Origin: Candidatus Bipolaricaulota bacterium
GTDB taxonomy: Bacteria; Bipolaricaulota; Bipolaricaulia; UBA7950; UBA9294
DNA length: 61,807 bases
Direction: 5' to 3'
Assembly: GCA_041302525.1 (NCBI GenBank)
Contig: JBFYQX010000092.1
Location: 1 to 61,807 of the forward strand
Of this stretch, positions 30,982 to 38,642 are shown piece by piece. The position numbers and the translations under genes were made by a program. Under the pieces are notes generated by a model. The model ran no database searches. It saw nothing but the letters and a program-made list of their open reading frames with translations, and was not told the DNA's origin. Positions within the stretch are counted from its first letter, which is position 1; each line of letters starts with the position of its first letter.

Positions 30982-31619
30982 AGCTCGCGCCATCCCTGCT
31001 GGCCGCGGACTTCTCGTGCCTCCTCGACGAGGCGGAGGCGGTTGCGCCGCTCGCATCGTGTCTGCACTGGGACGTCATGGACGGGCACTTCGTGCCCAAC
31101 CTGACGTTCGGCCCGCCGGTCGTGAACGCGTTGCGACGCCGCCTCGACCTGCCGTTTGAGATCCACCTGATGATCGAACGCCCGGCCGAGTACGCGCCGC
31201 AGTTCGACGTGCTTGAGAGGGACACAATCATCTTCCACGTCGAGGCGAGCGATCCGCCCGAGCGAGCGATCGCGGCCATCCGCAAGACGGGCGCCAGGGT
31301 CGGCGTGTCCCTGCGACCGCGGACGCCGCTCTGGGACCTCTTTCCGCTTCTCGACGAGGTCCGCACTGTCCTGGTGATGAGCGTCGAACCCGGCTTCGGC
31401 GGCCAGGCGTTTCGTCCCGAAACCCTCGAACGCATCCGCGCCCTGCGCGTCGAGACCGCGCCGCGCGGGATCGAGATCGCCGTGGACGGGGGCGTGAACG
31501 TCCACAACGCCCGCGAGATCGCGCGCGCCGGCGCGGATCTGCTCATTGCCGGCTCCGCGATCTTTGCCGCGCCGGACCGTCTCGCCGCCATGCGTGCCCT
31601 GCGGGAGGCCGCGGCGTGA
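30978..31619 (+). CDS. rpe: Ribulose-phosphate 3-epimerase
   Basis: APSLLAADF, HWDVMDGHFVPNLTFG, MSVEPGFGGQ, VDGG. Confidence 0.95.
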   Translation: MKLAPSLLAADFSCLLDEAEAVAPLASCLHWDVMDGHFVPNLTFGPPVVNALRRRLDLPFEIHLMIERPAEYAPQFDVLERDTIIFHVEASDPPERAIAAIRKTGARVGVSLRPRTPLWDLFPLLDEVRTVLVMSVEPGFGGQAFRPETLERIRALRVETAPRGIEIAVDGGVNVHNAREIARAGADLLIAGSAIFAAPDRLAAMRALREAAA

Positions 31620-32707
31620 ACGACGAGACGTTCCTGCGGCGCGCGTTTGAACTCGCCGAGGTGGGGGAGGGCGACACGTCGCCAAACCCGCTCGTCGGCG
31701 CCCTCGTCGTCCGCGACGGGCTCATCGTCGGGCGAGGCGCGCACCGCGCGTTCGGAGGCCCCCACGCCGAGGTCTTCGCCCTCGATGAGGCCGGGGACCG
31801 CGCGCGCGGCGCGACCCTTTACGTCACTCTCGAACCGTGCGCACACCACGGCAAGACCCCGCCGTGCACCGAGCGCATCCTGGCCGCCGGCGTCGCGCGC
31901 ATCGTCGCGCCGGTAGAAGACCCGAACCCCGTCGTCGCCGGGCGCGGCTTTGCCGCGCTCCGTTCCGGCGGTCTGACCGTCGATGTGGGTTTGTTGCTCG
32001 ACGTCGCGCTTCGCCAGAACGAGATCTTCTTCAAGTACATCCGGACCCGCCTCCCGTTCGTCCACCTCAAGCTCGCCCAGAGCCTCGACGGTCGCATCGC
32101 CACGCGAACCGGGGACGCGCGCTGGATCTCGAGCGAGCCCGCCCAGGTGCTCGTACACCGCTGGCGCCGGCGCCATGCCGCCGTGCTCGTCGGCCTCGGA
32201 ACCGTGCTCGCCGACGATCCCGAGCTGACCGTGCGCCACGTCGTCGGGCGCCAACCCACGCCCGTCGTCGTGGACCGCGACGGACAGCTTGCGCCCACTG
32301 CGCGACTCGTCCGTTCAGGTCGCGCCCCGATCGTGGCCGTCGCCCGCATCGAGGCCGAGCGTCGCGCCGCGCTCGAAGCGCAGGGGTGCCGCGTGTGGGA
32401 GCTGCCAGCAGGCCAGGGTGACGTCGACATCGCCGTTCTTCTCTGTCGGCTCGGCGCCGCGGGCATCGACTCGCTGCTCGTCGAAGGCGGGGGAGAGACC
32501 GCTGCCTCGTTCCTCCGAGCCGGACTCGTGGACCGCATCTCCGTGTTCATTGCGCCCCTGCTGATCGGCGGGCGCAGCGCCGTCCCGGCGATCGGCGGAG
32601 AGGGGAGCGAGCGCCTGCGCGACGCGTGGCCCCTTCGCGGCGTGACCATCGAGTGGATCGGCCCCGATCTGCTCTACTCCGGCCGGGTGGGTTCTCCAGA
32701 CGCGTAA
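31616..32707 (+). CDS. ribD: Riboflavin biosynthesis deaminase/reductase
   Basis: PNPLVG, HAE, TLEPCAHHGKTPPC, SLDGRIA, LVEGGG. Confidence 0.95.
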   Translation: MNDETFLRRAFELAEVGEGDTSPNPLVGALVVRDGLIVGRGAHRAFGGPHAEVFALDEAGDRARGATLYVTLEPCAHHGKTPPCTERILAAGVARIVAPVEDPNPVVAGRGFAALRSGGLTVDVGLLLDVALRQNEIFFKYIRTRLPFVHLKLAQSLDGRIATRTGDARWISSEPAQVLVHRWRRRHAAVLVGLGTVLADDPELTVRHVVGRQPTPVVVDRDGQLAPTARLVRSGRAPIVAVARIEAERRAALEAQGCRVWELPAGQGDVDIAVLLCRLGAAGIDSLLVEGGGETAASFLRAGLVDRISVFIAPLLIGGRSAVPAIGGEGSERLRDAWPLRGVTIEWIGPDLLYSGRVGSPDA

Positions 32708-32757: not shown

Positions 32758-32830
32758 TGGGGCGCAGCCGGGTATCAGCCTGCCGCACCCCCGAGGTGGC
32801 CGAACGCTCCCTCTCCAGAGCGGCGTGGCT
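32758..32830 (-). pseudogene. Strongly decayed tRNA-Val-derived copy (copy 3)
   Basis: Aligns with copy 2 and tRNA-Val; retains the GCTC/GAGC D-stem, GTTCGG, GCAGG and TGCGCCC. Confidence 0.6.
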
Positions 32831-32879
32831 CTCCCAGCCGCAGGGCAAGCAGCAAAGCCGGATGCAGGCCTCGAGAGAG

Positions 32880-32904
32880 GAGCCGCCGGCATAGCCGGCG
32901 GCTC
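32880..32904 (-). terminator. GC hairpin downstream of tRNA copy 2
   Basis: GAGCCGCCGGC-ATA-GCCGGCGGCTC, perfect 11-bp stem, homologous to 33210-33236. Confidence 0.6.
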
Positions 32905-32912
32905 CGATGTCC

Positions 32913-32988
32913 TGGTGGGCGCAGCAGGGGTTCTAGCCTGCGGCACCTCCGAGGTGCCCGAACGCTCTCCCAGCTGAGCGACTTGGCC
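32913..32988 (-). pseudogene. tRNA-Val-derived copy 2 (76 nt, ends in CCA, acceptor and anticodon arms altered)
   Basis: Shares GCTCAGCTGGGAGAGCGTTCGGG and CCTGCTGCGCCCA with tRNA-Val; the anticodon arm is replaced by GGCACCT-CGG-AGGTGCC. Confidence 0.75.
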
Positions 32989-33002
32989 ACCAGACGACAA
33001 GC

Positions 33003-33183
33003 CAAGCAGCGAAGTCAGACCAAGCCGCCACTGAGCTACTCGCCCCGCCGCAGAGACAAGCGAGCAGCGAAGCCGACCACGCCATGCGGAGCTACTTGCT
33101 CCTCCAGACCGAAAGGCAAGCAGCGAAGCCGACCACGCCATGCGGAGCTACTTGCCCCTCCGAACCGCAGGCAAGCAGCGAAG
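33003..33183. repeat. Tandem 55-58 nt degenerate repeats with core (C)AAGCAGCGAAG
   Basis: Cores at 33003, 33062, 33117 and 33172, plus a variant at 32846; units 2 and 3 share GCAGCGAAGCCGACCACGCCATGCGGAGCTACTTGC. Confidence 0.8.
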
Positions 33184-33209
33184 CGCATCGCAGGTTGGCC
33201 AAGAGAGAC

Positions 33210-33236
33210 GGGCCGCCGGTCGATGACCGGCGGCCC
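33210..33236 (-). terminator. GC hairpin downstream of tRNA-Val
   Basis: GGGCCGCCGGTC-GAT-GACCGGCGGCCC, perfect 12-bp stem. Confidence 0.65.
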
Positions 33237-33250
33237 GTGGCTACGCGCTG

Positions 33251-33323
33251 TGGGCGCAGCAGGGTTCGAACCTGCGGCCTCTCGGATGTGACCCGAACGC
33301 TCTCCCAGCTGAGCTATGCGCCC
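33251..33323 (-). tRNA. tRNA-Val(CAC), CCA not encoded
   Basis: GGGCGCA/TGCGCCC acceptor, loop GT-CAC-AT, TTCGAAC T-loop; extended -10 TG-G-TACAAT upstream. Confidence 0.92.
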
Positions 33324-33391
33324 TTCTTGCGCATTGTACCACGCGGGCCGCCGCAAGGGGAGTCTCGCGACTCACCCCGCGCAGCGCGCGT

Positions 33392-34636
33392 CTAGGCGTC
33401 GAATTTGGCGTTCTCGAGCATGTCTGAGAGGCTTTCGCCGCGCCGTTTACGCGTGATCTCCACCAGCCCGAGCGCCGTCATGTCCACGAAGTCCGCCGAG
33501 ACCCGATCCTTCTTCAGCTCCTCCTGCACCTTCTGCACGACCTGCTCGACGTGGGTTGGATCCTCCATGTCGACGAAGTCCACGATGATGATCCCGCTGA
33601 TCTGGCGTAGCCGAAGCTGCCGTGCGATCTCTGTCGCCGCCTCGAGGTTCGTGTTGAGAATCGCCGACGACTGGTTGCGGTGGCGCACATCGCCCCCGGT
33701 GTTGACATCGATGGCAATGAGGGCTTCCGTTTCATCGATGACAATCGACCCGCCGCCCGAGAGCGGCACGCGCCGCGCCAGGCTGTCGTGGATCTGTCGC
33801 TCCAGATCGTGTTTGGCGAACAGCGGATCCGGTCCCTTGTGCAGGCGGATCCGATCCCGGTGCTCGGTCATCTGCATGTACTCGAGGAACGACTGGATCT
33901 TCTCGAAGAAGAACGGCGAGTCCGCGATGACCTCGACGATGTCAGGCCCCATCCAGTCGCGCAGCACGGTCTGAACGAGGCCCATGGCCTTGTACACCAG
34001 CCGCGGTGACGTCGCGGCCTTGGCGGCCGCGGTGACGCGCTCCCAGCTCTCCACGAGCAGGCGGTAGTCCCTTTCCAGTTCCTCATCCGTGGCCCATTGC
34101 GCGGCTGTGCGAGCGATCATGCCCTCGCCCGGCCTCTTCAGCGCCCGCGCCAATCGGCGGATGCGCCGTTGATCGCGCACGGCCTCGACCCGCCGCGAAA
34201 CGCCGAGCCGGTCTTCGGTCGGCAGGTAGACCCAGAAGCGCCCCGGGATCGAGATCTTCGTTGTCCCTTGTGGGTTCTTCGTGCCGATCCCGTCGCGCCG
34301 CACCTGGAGCGTGATCATCTGGCCCTGCCGCAGGATCTTCCCGATGGGGATCCCGTTCTGCCACGGCTTGAACCCCTTCTCCTCGAGCATGCTGTCGTTC
34401 AGCTCGTTCAGCGACAGGAAGAGGCTCTTCTTCTCCCCGACGTCGACGAACGCCGACCCCATGCCCGGGACAACGTCCTCGATGCGTCCCCGATAGATGT
34501 TTCCAACGAGCTTCTCGCGTGATGGGTGACCGTAGTAGATCTCCATCAGTCGGGTCCCCTCGAGGAGCGCGACCCGCGTCCGCTTGTCTCCGTCTTCCGT
34601 CGTGTCAACGGAGATCAGGATTCTCTTGTCGTCGAT
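33392..34636 (-). CDS. rng: RNase G/E family ribonuclease; probable ATC start at 34636
   Basis: GNIYRG...V.PGM.SAFVD.G, KNPQGTT.ISIPGR, IDETEALIAIDVNTG, RLRQISGIIIVDFVDM; the conserved N-terminus lies upstream of ATG 34546. Confidence 0.9.
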   Translation of the reverse strand: MDDKRILISVDTTEDGDKRTRVALLEGTRLMEIYYGHPSREKLVGNIYRGRIEDVVPGMGSAFVDVGEKKSLFLSLNELNDSMLEEKGFKPWQNGIPIGKILRQGQMITLQVRRDGIGTKNPQGTTKISIPGRFWVYLPTEDRLGVSRRVEAVRDQRRIRRLARALKRPGEGMIARTAAQWATDEELERDYRLLVESWERVTAAAKAATSPRLVYKAMGLVQTVLRDWMGPDIVEVIADSPFFFEKIQSFLEYMQMTEHRDRIRLHKGPDPLFAKHDLERQIHDSLARRVPLSGGGSIVIDETEALIAIDVNTGGDVRHRNQSSAILNTNLEAATEIARQLRLRQISGIIIVDFVDMEDPTHVEQVVQKVQEELKKDRVSADFVDMTALGLVEITRKRRGESLSDMLENAKFDA

Positions 34637-37378: not shown

Positions 37379-38642
37379 GCTCAACGCGAACCTCGCCGAT
37401 GCGCAGCGGATCCCCGTCATGGTACCCGATGCGGCGCAGCTCCTTGAGTGCACCCATCTTCTCCAAGCGGTCGGTGAGGTACTCGGGCGCGTCGCGCGTG
37501 GAGAGCACGAGCTTGCGGGCCACGTTCTCGACCGAGCGCCCCGAGATGACGAACGCGTCGGCCGCTCGGCTGACCGCGAACCCCGACTCGCCCTCGTAGC
37601 GATAGACCCGCCGGCGGACACTGGTCGGGGCTACGACGTCCCTGGACCGCTCCTCCTCGAGCCTGCGCCACGCGCGTTCGACCAACTCGCGCACCCCGCG
37701 CAGGGTCGCGACCGACACGGGGTGGAGCTCCACGCCGGCCACGGCGAACCGGGCGCGCATCGCCTCGATGGCATCATCCTGCAGAAGATCGCACTTGTTC
37801 CCGGCAACGATCTGCGGTCGTTCGGCCAACGCCGGGTTAAACGCGGCCAGCTCCGCGTTGATCCGCTGCAGATCCTCGACCGGATCTCGTCCGTCGAGCG
37901 CCGCAAGGTCGATCAGGTGGATGAGGACGCGCGTCCGTTCCACGTGGCGAAGGAACCGATCGCCCAGGCCGCGGCCCTTGTGCGCTCCGTCAATCAGTCC
38001 CGGCACGTCGACCGCCACGAACTGGTGCCGGCCGTCGACGTCGACCACGCCGAGATTGGGCACGAGCGTGGTGAACGGGTAGTCGGCGACCTTGGCCCGC
38101 TTGCCGGAGATCGACGAGATCAGGCTCGACTTGCCGACGTTGGGGTATCCGATGATCCCCACGTCAGCGATGAGGCGGAGCTCGAGCTTGAGCGTCCGCG
38201 CTTCGCCAGCCAGCCCACGCTCGCAGAGGCGCGGGGTCGTGCGCGACGGCCCGGCGAAGCTGGAGTTGCCCCGCCCGCCTTCGCCGCCGCGAGCGACGAC
38301 GACCTCGTCCCCGGCCTGCGCCAGGTCAGCGAGCAGCTCGCTCGTCCCCTCGTCCTTGATCACCGTGCCCACCGGAACGTGGACAATGCGGTCCGTACCG
38401 CACGCGCCGGCGCGGTTGTTCTCCCCTCCGCTCCCGCCGTCCTCCGCCTGGAACAGCGGGCGGTTGCGGAACGAGTACAGGGTCGACATGCTGGGGGATG
38501 CCACCAGCACCACGGCCCCGCCGGGGGCGCCGTTGCCCCCGTCCGGTCCGCCGCGCGGATTGTGCCGACTCGAGAGAAAGTGGATGATCCCGCCGCCTCC
38601 GCGTCCGCCACGGACGCGGATGGTTGCTTCATCGACGAACAT
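37368..38642 (-). CDS. obgE: GTPase Obg/CgtA
   Basis: MFVDEA, GGPDGG, ADVGIIGYPNVGKS, YPFTTL.PNLG, DVPGLI, NKCD, C-terminal DUF1967-like domain. Confidence 0.96.
   Translation of the reverse strand: MFVDEATIRVRGGRGGGGIIHFLSSRHNPRGGPDGGNGAPGGAVVLVASPSMSTLYSFRNRPLFQAEDGGSGGENNRAGACGTDRIVHVPVGTVIKDEGTSELLADLAQAGDEVVVARGGEGGRGNSSFAGPSRTTPRLCERGLAGEARTLKLELRLIADVGIIGYPNVGKSSLISSISGKRAKVADYPFTTLVPNLGVVDVDGRHQFVAVDVPGLIDGAHKGRGLGDRFLRHVERTRVLIHLIDLAALDGRDPVEDLQRINAELAAFNPALAERPQIVAGNKCDLLQDDAIEAMRARFAVAGVELHPVSVATLRGVRELVERAWRRLEEERSRDVVAPTSVRRRVYRYEGESGFAVSRAADAFVISGRSVENVARKLVLSTRDAPEYLTDRLEKMGALKELRRIGYHDGDPLRIGEVRVELAP

Follow-up and report, generated by a model that had tools for sequence, protein, structure and literature searches.

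The repeats distal to the tyrT and tyrV tRNA genes of Escherichia coli are units of 178 bp, each of which carries approximately 19 nt of the tRNA 3′ end; their copy number varies among strains and they contain a Tpr-like open reading frame (ORF). Unequal recombination is the presumed source of the tyrT repeats and of their changes, and no function is known to have been established for them. In plant mitochondria, stem-loops known as t-elements, which are tRNA-like or acceptor-stem-like, are used as processing signals by RNase P and RNase Z. One unit of the E. coli tRNA-linked repeats gives rise to the RtT (rttR) RNA (Bosl & Kersten 1991, as cited in PMC3318445), and tRNA genes are common integration sites at which integration leaves partial tRNA copies (PMC9897764). 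Here, the tRNA-Val(CAC) gene and the array of tRNA-derived units behind it were analyzed in a 61,807-nt stretch of DNA (the window) from contig JBFYQX010000092.1 of a Candidatus Bipolaricaulota bacterium. This contig (C27) belongs to a 118-contig metagenome-assembled genome (MAG) of 1.82 Mb and 68% GC, labelled G000. We estimate the probability at about 0.7 that the region, at positions 32758 to 33323, is one working tRNA-Val(CAC) transcription unit followed by remnants that its own successive tandem duplications have left behind. In what follows, G-numbers denote genomes, L-numbers denote loci or metagenome contigs, and g1, g5, g10 and g18 denote genera within the family.

The likeness to the tyrT repeats suggested in the initial annotation holds as an analogy of layout, in that tandem units lie directly 3′ of a tRNA gene, each unit contains a piece of the tRNA, the copy number is variable and the origin is presumed to be recombinational, but no match to RtT (RF00391) was found in the region at E ≤ 10 or in seven related loci at E ≤ 0.01. 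Rfam scans of the region (gathering threshold and E ≤ 10) and of the same seven loci (E ≤ 0.01) returned only tRNA, and the weak matches to asX1, YrlA and P17 were to the tRNA or the hairpin itself. In contrast to the tyrT repeats, the units described here consist of nearly a whole tRNA body (from position 8–10) together with a terminator hairpin and an acceptor-like hairpin; there is no Tpr-like ORF, and the phylum is Bipolaricaulota.

The features of the array are as follows. Bit scores of R hairpins refer to the R hairpin model (model R2); the model of the mini-tRNA units described below is model R1, and both are distinct from the hairpins R1 to R4.

33250 to 33323, minus strand: functional tRNA-Val(CAC) (ARAGORN; Rfam tRNA, 62.1 bits)

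33208 to 33238, minus strand: hairpin hp1, with 14-nt arms that are 100% complementary (fold z = -5.96)

33143 to 33183, minus strand: R1 hairpin, CTTCGCTGCTTGCC, 13-nt loop, GGCAAGTAGCTC (model R2, 52.1 bits; fold)

33087 to 33128, minus strand: R2 hairpin (model R2, 50.3 bits)

33031 to 33072, minus strand: R3 hairpin, arms CTCGC/GCGAG, a compensatory change relative to R1 (model R2, 50.9 bits)

32974 to 33014, minus strand: R4 hairpin, arms CTTGGC/GCCAAG (model R2, 45.4 bits)

32913 to 32988, minus strand: copy 2, a pseudo-tRNA of 76 nt ending in GCGCCCA-CCA (sequence read; 83.6% identity to the tRNA)

32879 to 32905, minus strand: hairpin hp2, with 12-nt arms that are 100% complementary (z = -7.16)

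32832 to 32860, minus strand: R5, a decayed R unit in which the 5′ arm CTTTGCTGCTTGCC is recognizable and the 3′ arm is degenerate (alignment)

32758 to 32831, minus strand: copy 3, a more decayed pseudo-tRNA (70.3% identity to the tRNA and 79.7% to copy 2)

All of the elements that had been described from the sequence, namely the tRNA, the hairpin, the repeats, the 76-nt copy 2, the second hairpin and copy 3, were found on the minus strand at these positions. The tRNA-Val(CAC) gene forms 7/7 acceptor pairs, its cloverleaf is the minimum-free-energy fold and its CCA is not encoded. In contrast, only 4/7 acceptor pairs are formed in copy 2 and 4/7 in copy 3, because the 5′ strand of the copies is not the tRNA's own (GGCCAAG or GAGCCAC compared to GGGCGCA in tRNA-Val). 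The T loops of the copies read CTAGAACC and CTGATAC, and the conserved TTCGA is gone. When the region was analyzed with ARAGORN, only 33250 to 33323 was called, and copies 2 and 3 were not; a search of 851 nt with the Rfam tRNA model matched neither copy, even with the threshold relaxed to E ≤ 10. The hairpin downstream of copy 3 has also decayed. These findings show that copies 2 and 3 are non-functional pseudogenes. The GCTC/GAGC D stem is retained in both copies as had been noted; the D arm of copy 2 is identical to that of the tRNA, and the D loop is altered in copy 3 only. The anticodon arm is replaced in both copies by the hairpin CACCTCGG(A/G)GGTG (GGCACCTCGGAGGTGCC in copy 2), the CACC-TCGG-(A/G)GGTG hairpin of the initial annotation. 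The CCA end of copy 2 was considered as a sign of retro-copying or as the displaced original 3′ end and was uninformative, as the tRNAs of G073 and G023 encode CCA, most do not, and a one-base difference is involved here. A circularly permuted or split tRNA was rejected since each body contains a T arm and a 3′ strand that are complete.

The proposal that the copies are relics of repeated duplication was borne out by the alignment of three macro-units (body, hairpin, spacer and R arm) over approximately 170 nt, with stepwise decay from one unit to the next. When the region was compared with its own genome by blastn, units 1 and 2 were 77.8% identical over 162 nt (E = 5e-17), units 2 and 3 were 78% identical over 100 nt (E = 9e-10), and R units were 81.8% identical to each other over 143 nt (E = 3e-24), a similarity far beyond chance. 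Copy 3 is nearer to copy 2 (79.7%) than to the tRNA (70.3%), indicating that it was duplicated from an already decayed, copy-2-like unit. The derived changes common to copies 2 and 3 are the loss of T33, CACCTCGG.GGTG and GGCT in the T loop. The CACC-TCGG-GGTG hairpin and the T-loop changes are shared derived characters, which reflect inheritance and not convergence or covariation. An A in TTCGAAC is present in all three bodies of G000, and a G is present at this position in 6/7 other members of the genus (all those read, G006 being the seventh) and at nearly all family loci read. Because all three bodies carry this lineage-specific A, the duplications, or a later conversion, were confined to the G000 lineage, and the copies would appear to have decayed quickly after a recent duplication.

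The hairpins hp1 and hp2 are homologous and have a common core, GCCGCCGG/CCGGCGGC. Both stems are perfect, and hp2 differs from hp1 by one additional A-T pair (GGAGCC../..GGCTCC compared to GGGCC../..GGCCC); the compensatory change reported previously between the two hairpins is therefore present and is open to two interpretations, a substitution or the insertion of a pair. hp1 is a 14-bp GC stem with the tail GUCUCUCUU, a poor U tract, and for this reason it was not called as a terminator by the scanner. It is probably the weak intrinsic terminator of tRNA-Val, and hp2 is a probable back-up terminator.

Tandem Repeats Finder reported a period of 56, 2.2 copies and 92% matches, and there are four R hairpins in all. 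Each R unit consists of CTTCGCTGCT plus 3–4 variable nt, a purine-rich loop of 12–16 nt, the complementary variable nt and AGTAGCTC. The arms are recognizable derivatives of the ends of the family-consensus tRNA (..CTGCTTCGCCC and GGGCGAATAGCTC): in R1, the spacer forms the loop between an upstream arm similar to the 3′ acceptor strand of the tRNA and a downstream arm similar to the 5′ acceptor strand followed by TAGCTC. The acceptor-like arms have drifted to GGGCAAG, GGGCGAG and GGCCAAG, compared to GGGCGCA in tRNA-Val, and the 3′ arm of R4 is at the same time the 5′ end of copy 2. No R unit was found elsewhere in the genome by blastn or with model R2, the matches being confined to 32974–33183. 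The 12 R hairpins of G000, G001, G002, G004 and G074 all fold as hairpins of 9–10 bp. In their alignment 97.5% of the cells are paired, three pairs have changed on both sides (UA/CG, GC/CG and CG/GC/AU; 13 cells), and the stem has an invariant G.U pair. Neither the pairing nor the covariation observed was attained in any of 500 shuffles, a control that related sequences are known to exceed even when they are unstructured, and slid controls were at most 46% paired. Conservation of stems among the relatives thus applies to the R stems, which covary across five genomes; the extra tRNA bodies have instead decayed differently in each genome. These findings show that the R hairpins are older than the copies, confined to the locus and structurally constrained.

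Several known repeat types were considered for R and discarded. A REP/RAYT element, suggested by the GTAG in the R arm, was rejected because GTAG corresponds to tRNA positions 7–10 and the repeat is confined to this locus. The R units also do not behave as a dispersed palindromic repeat of the REP (repetitive extragenic palindrome) or MITE (miniature inverted-repeat transposable element) type, as they occupy one locus in their own genome and model R1 finds one locus per family genome. A CsrA-type sponge was suggested by GGA in the loops; roughly one R loop in two contains GGA, and the spacers of other genera lack it.

The relatives show how such copies arise and turn over. Something is carried behind tRNA-Val in 4/8 genomes of the genus. 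G004 has three bodies whose identity extends from position 10 past the end of the hairpin; two of the three are called as tRNA-Val by ARAGORN, and the extra bodies score 45.9 and 41.7 bits with Rfam compared to 62.4 for the intact gene. Two tRNA-Val genes are likewise called in G074, which belongs to another genus and, together with the metagenome contig L094, has the same macro-units of R, body and hairpin. In G002, the order is tRNA, 10 nt, R and body, with the sole hairpin after the body, and in G001 it is tRNA, hairpin, R and a half-decayed body. The 5′ ends of the copies are chimeric: in G004, G002, G001, G074 and L094, all extra bodies begin with the R 3′ arm, and identity to the genome's own tRNA resumes at TAGCTCAG or GCTCAG in the extra bodies of these five assemblies, which carry differing lesions. 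The number of extra bodies varies from 0 to 3 among close relatives, and turnover of the array is fast.

Two of the 120 matches listed in a metagenome pattern scan were relevant (L094 and L109). L094 (Ga0272444_10190819) is G074-like, with tRNA-Val followed by two R + body + hairpin macro-units of approximately 480 nt; the anticodon loops of its extra bodies are GTCGCAC and GTCGCAT (A35 to G), which read literally give the anticodon CGC. L109 (Ga0116154_10018281) and L004 (G004:C170) have flanks that are 99.8–100% identical, and L109 has two bodies compared to three and is approximately 210 nt shorter, a difference due either to copy-number polymorphism in the population or to assembly collapse. 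Contig breaks at or within approximately 50 nt of tRNA-Val or the array were seen in G046:C73, G052:C44, G053:C99, G079:C15, G088:C203, G016:C50, G056:C91 and G074:C57, as expected if unassembled repeats are common at the locus.

The extra tRNA bodies may be products of recombination between the hairpin and the tRNA, a proposal drawn from the layout of the junctions. An old tRNA-derived hairpin R would have been present downstream of the tRNA, with a 3′-acceptor-like arm, a purine-rich spacer loop of 12–16 nt and a 5′-acceptor-like arm plus TAGCTCAG. Because the stretch ..AGTAGCTCAG is common to the R 3′ arm and tRNA positions 7–15, recombination between R and the tRNA 5′ region would duplicate a block made up of the body from position 8–10, the terminator hairpin, the spacer and R, and slipped or unequal recombination would be the simplest mechanism. 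A body formed in this way would be non-functional from the start because it begins with an R arm and cannot form an acceptor stem. Without a promoter of its own, it would be reached at most by read-through of the weak hp1, whose poor U tract (GUCUCUCUU) may let some transcription through, and it would decay neutrally. The long repeats would then expand and contract by homologous unequal crossing-over. The perfect stem of hp2 may have been kept to stop read-through before the convergent gene ribD, and the hairpin of the third unit may have decayed since little transcription reaches it. The R stems may be kept paired at the RNA level, for example, lest the acceptor-like strands mispair with the tRNA precursor.

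Some findings weigh against duplication debris as the full account. The microhomology at the junction is short, approximately 8–10 nt, and the first duplication step is deduced from its products only. Gene conversion from the tRNA instead of a recent duplication could explain the shared lineage-specific base. Two pairings of the R arms score nearly alike in G000, at 27/28 when the arms pair across the spacer and at 19/21 when they pair across the unit interior, and this genome alone does not distinguish between them; G001 and G002, with a single R each, permit only the pairing across the spacer. Finally, the conservation of the arms CTTCGCTGCT and AGTAGCTC between two genera and the covarying stems indicate that R is not simple junk, and part of the array may function.

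This last point leads to an alternative that we regard as possible and hold only tentatively, in which the R hairpins and the mini-tRNA hairpins of other genera form a functional structured RNA module that is cotranscribed with tRNA-Val as a leader or trailer mimicking the acceptor stem, and the copies are only by-products. The hairpins could direct processing by RNase P, Z or E/G or act as decoys for these enzymes, or they could insulate the precursor from misfolding. This reading overlaps with the duplication reading and differs from it on the function of R. In genera g18 and g10, arrays of 2–6 mini-tRNA units lie between the promoter and the mature tRNA-Val, and hence they must be transcribed. 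Each unit consists of GGGCGAA plus T(A/G)(G/A)C, an apical hairpin or a 3-nt loop, G(C/T)(T/C)G plus TTCGCYY and a copy of 12–14 nt of the tRNA leader. The mini-unit covariance model (model R1) matches the tRNA-Val(CAC) locus only, in 6/6 genomes of g18 and 3/3 of g10, so that the units are confined to one locus yet kept across genera; this model, built from another genus, also detects 33101–33157 of G000 (28.8 bits, E = 3.6e-5). The basal stem of the mini-units is 94% paired, with pairs 9–64 and 10–63 switching in step (TAGC/GCTG, TGAC/GTCG and TGGC/GCCG), and the apical stem covaries. All mini-units folded were hairpins with a base of 10–11 bp, except the 116-nt composite first unit of G074.

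Further support for a functional module comes from the degree of conservation. Mini-unit types common to species are 85–97% identical, compared to 77–92% for the flanking genes and 72–85% for the promoter region, and they are therefore as conserved as coding sequence. The pairing and covariation of the R and mini-unit stems indicate conserved structure, and the conserved G.U pairs fit an RNA on the sense strand only. Moreover, in G002 there is no hairpin between the tRNA and R plus body, so that R and the body must be transcribed. In contrast, copy number and order vary freely among close relatives, and the array is missing in half of its own genus and in most genera of the family. There is no known protein partner, sequence motif or Rfam family, and a strong hairpin stands ahead of R in G000, G001 and G004. 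Part of the conservation could stem from gene conversion by the tRNA, and the shuffle controls carry the caveat for related sequences given above.

The upstream mini-helix arrays of other Bipolaricaulota genera occupy the same rng–tRNA-Val locus and have the same basal stem (acceptor plus TAGC/GCTG). In contrast to these arrays, the units of this genus lie downstream of the tRNA, behind a hairpin, and are interleaved with near-full-length pseudo-tRNA bodies. The downstream array of this genus is homologous to the upstream leader arrays of the other genera. The hairpins R1 to R4 (45–52 bits with model R2) and the stretch 33101–33157 (model R1) have arms derived from the acceptor strands plus TAGC/GCTG at rng–tRNA-Val(CAC), with compensatory changes in the R stems among related sequences, and can provisionally be assigned to an undescribed tRNA-Val acceptor mini-helix/R family. 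It is possible, though less likely than not, that the R and mini-tRNA hairpins together make up one undescribed family of tRNA-derived cis-acting RNA modules, acceptor-stem mimics cotranscribed with tRNA-Val(CAC) beside the RNase E/G gene and acting as processing signals, decoys or insulators, with the pseudo-tRNAs as a recurrent side product of recombination between module and tRNA. A phylum-wide search for the pattern GGGCGAWT..GGGCGAWT gave mostly chance matches in coding DNA, and true arrays were found only in g18 and g10. The family appears to be restricted to one locus per genome, with related arrays in genus g5 as a possible exception.

The g5 arrays were observed away from tRNA-Val at G083:C37:~37400-37760 (L208) and G082:C27:~2300-2450 (L209). 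They have arms of the design GAGGAA-TAGC ... GCTG-TTCCTT and spacers TTGAGGATTGGTT. One of them is divergent from tRNA-Pro(tgg), and the other overlies the promoter (TTGACG-17 nt-TAGCCT) region of an lspA-like gene, which suggests that the module is able to occur independently of the tRNA from which it derives.

Selection on the copies themselves is far less probable. According to the initial annotation, copies 2 and 3 could be tRNA-derived structured RNAs under selection, which would make them tRNA-like RNAs that have acquired a central hairpin. In line with this, the D stem and the CACC-TCGG-GGTG hairpin are retained in both copies, and copy 2 ends in CCA and has a perfect hairpin of its own, but descent explains the shared features and the acceptor and T arms are broken. 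The fold z-scores of copies 2 and 3 are -0.45 and -0.94, respectively, no better than those of shuffled sequences. The minimum-free-energy fold of copy 2 does not contain the CACC-TCGG-GGTG hairpin, and hairpins of the CACCTCGG type are unused by RNAfold. Moreover, the copies are specific to the G000 lineage, the extra bodies of relatives have decayed with different lesions, and no promoter was found for the copies with a scanner that also missed the tRNA promoter. This interpretation is therefore very unlikely and was not upheld.

The partial copies could also be scars of the attL/attR type left by deleted mobile elements that had integrated in tRNA-Val, in line with the use of tRNA genes as integration sites (PMC9897764) and with a downstream gene that differs within the genus, which marks the site as a point of rearrangement. 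As with the partial tRNAs derived from integration (Williams 2002 and Reiter 1989, as reviewed in PMC9897764), incomplete copies lie beside an intact gene and can be mistaken for genes by tRNA finders. In contrast to such scars, the repeats begin at tRNA position 8–10 and not in the anticodon or T loop, so that the D arm is included, and they continue for approximately 100 nt downstream of the tRNA 3′ end, so that the hairpin and the spacer are covered as well. The units are contiguous tandem arrays with no cargo and no integrase, the neighbors are the housekeeping genes rng, ribD and rpe and a Zn peptidase gene, and related arrays lie upstream in the tRNA leader, where scars are not expected. 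Integration, the other origin put forward for the copies, is thus highly improbable. An assembly artefact of the MAG, which the 118 contigs and the many related contigs ending at tRNA-Val might suggest, can be dismissed as scarcely credible, as the copies differ by 16–30%, assemblers do not invent diverged repeats, and five or more independent assemblies share this architecture.

The genes and signals that border the array are as follows.

33392 to 34546, minus strand: rng, RNase E/G family (Pfam RNase_E_G, E = 2.5e-90)

33333 to 33341, minus strand: probable extended -10 promoter TGGTACAAT (read by eye)

31616 to 32707, plus strand: ribD (deaminase plus RibD_C), convergent, bounding the array (RibD_C, E = 3e-48; dCMP_cyt_deam_1, E = 7e-16)

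The genes around the array (rng, ribD, rpe and the Zn peptidase gene) were assigned with Pfam. The stop codon of rng is approximately 70 nt upstream of tRNA-Val(CAC), and rng is the conserved upstream neighbor of this tRNA at every family locus with the upstream flank read; at the related loci read, rng ends in ...ENAKFDA* ahead of tRNA-Val. The box TGGTACAAT lies 9 nt ahead of the mature tRNA-Val 5′ end, has the equivalents TACAAT or TAGAAT in relatives, and is a probable extended -10 promoter of tRNA-Val. A consensus scan of the region for promoters and terminators found nothing, even at the tRNA promoter, with a scanner that needs a -35 box and in a GC-rich genome. A conserved hairpin, GAGTC(TC)..(GA)GACTC, was observed between the rng stop codon and the tRNA -10 box (window positions 33392–33341; L002, L025, L026 and L053) in the several genera read, and it may be an rng terminator that overlaps the tRNA promoter. 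The three ORFs that overlap the array (221, 155 and 106 amino acids) have no Pfam match, and a coding role of the array was rejected on this ground and because the unit lengths of 56, 38 and 61–65 nt are not divisible by three. Downstream of tRNA-Val, the next gene is the convergent ribD in G000, G001 and G002, and a same-strand NAD-dependent epimerase-like gene in G003, G004, G005 and G007. Because the downstream gene differs within the genus, the 3′ flank of tRNA-Val is a rearrangement breakpoint.

Tandem copies were also observed at other tRNA genes of this genome, which is prone to tandem duplication. At G000:C20:2220-2434 (L197/L200), three near-identical 72-nt units stand directly upstream of tRNA-Leu(tag); they start with the first 14 nt of the tRNA (GCGAAGGTGGCGGA) and end with TCCTTGACAC. 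This repeat was not found in 25 related genomes searched and is therefore a recent event in the lineage. At G000:C23:500-1700 (reverse; L198), tRNA-Arg(ccg) is followed by a second copy, which an insert of approximately 90 nt around the D loop divides in two, and beyond it lies a third, 3′ fragment. At G000:C44:1-500 (L199), tRNA-Arg(cct) is followed by two fragments of the T arm and 3′ acceptor, the first with its own hairpin. The hairpin motif GGAGTTCGC..GCGAACTCC-CAAGC is present at both tRNA-Arg loci (L198 and L199). A perfect palindromic hairpin, GCTACTCTGC-loop-GCAGAGTAGC, lies 3 nt upstream of both tRNA-Arg(ccg) copies (G000:C20:211-243 and G000:C23:1050-1082); its 3′ arm ends in AGTAGC, as do the 3′ arms of the R hairpins, and genome-wide this motif occurs only there and in the tRNA-Val array.

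The locus is a variant of the known tRNA-linked repeats, with conserved, covarying hairpins that mimic the acceptor end. As in the t-elements, these hairpins mimic an acceptor end within longer transcripts, and the R and mini-unit stems of 10–11 bp are about as long as a stacked acceptor and T stem. In contrast to the t-elements, the units flank their parent tRNA and not mRNAs, and they have no conserved discriminator base or CCA context. For annotation, the copies should be treated as pseudogenes and not as tRNA-Val genes, including the fresher ones that are scored as tRNA in relatives. The identical copies in G004, the copies with 84% and 70% identity here and the fragments in G001 form a clean natural series in which the origin and decay of tRNA-linked repeats can be followed, and they illustrate how repeated duplication may be seeded by a tRNA-derived hairpin. 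Were the hairpins shown to have a function, they would represent the bacterial equivalent of tRNA-like processing elements, located beside a gene whose product is an RNase that acts on the precursors of tRNAs.

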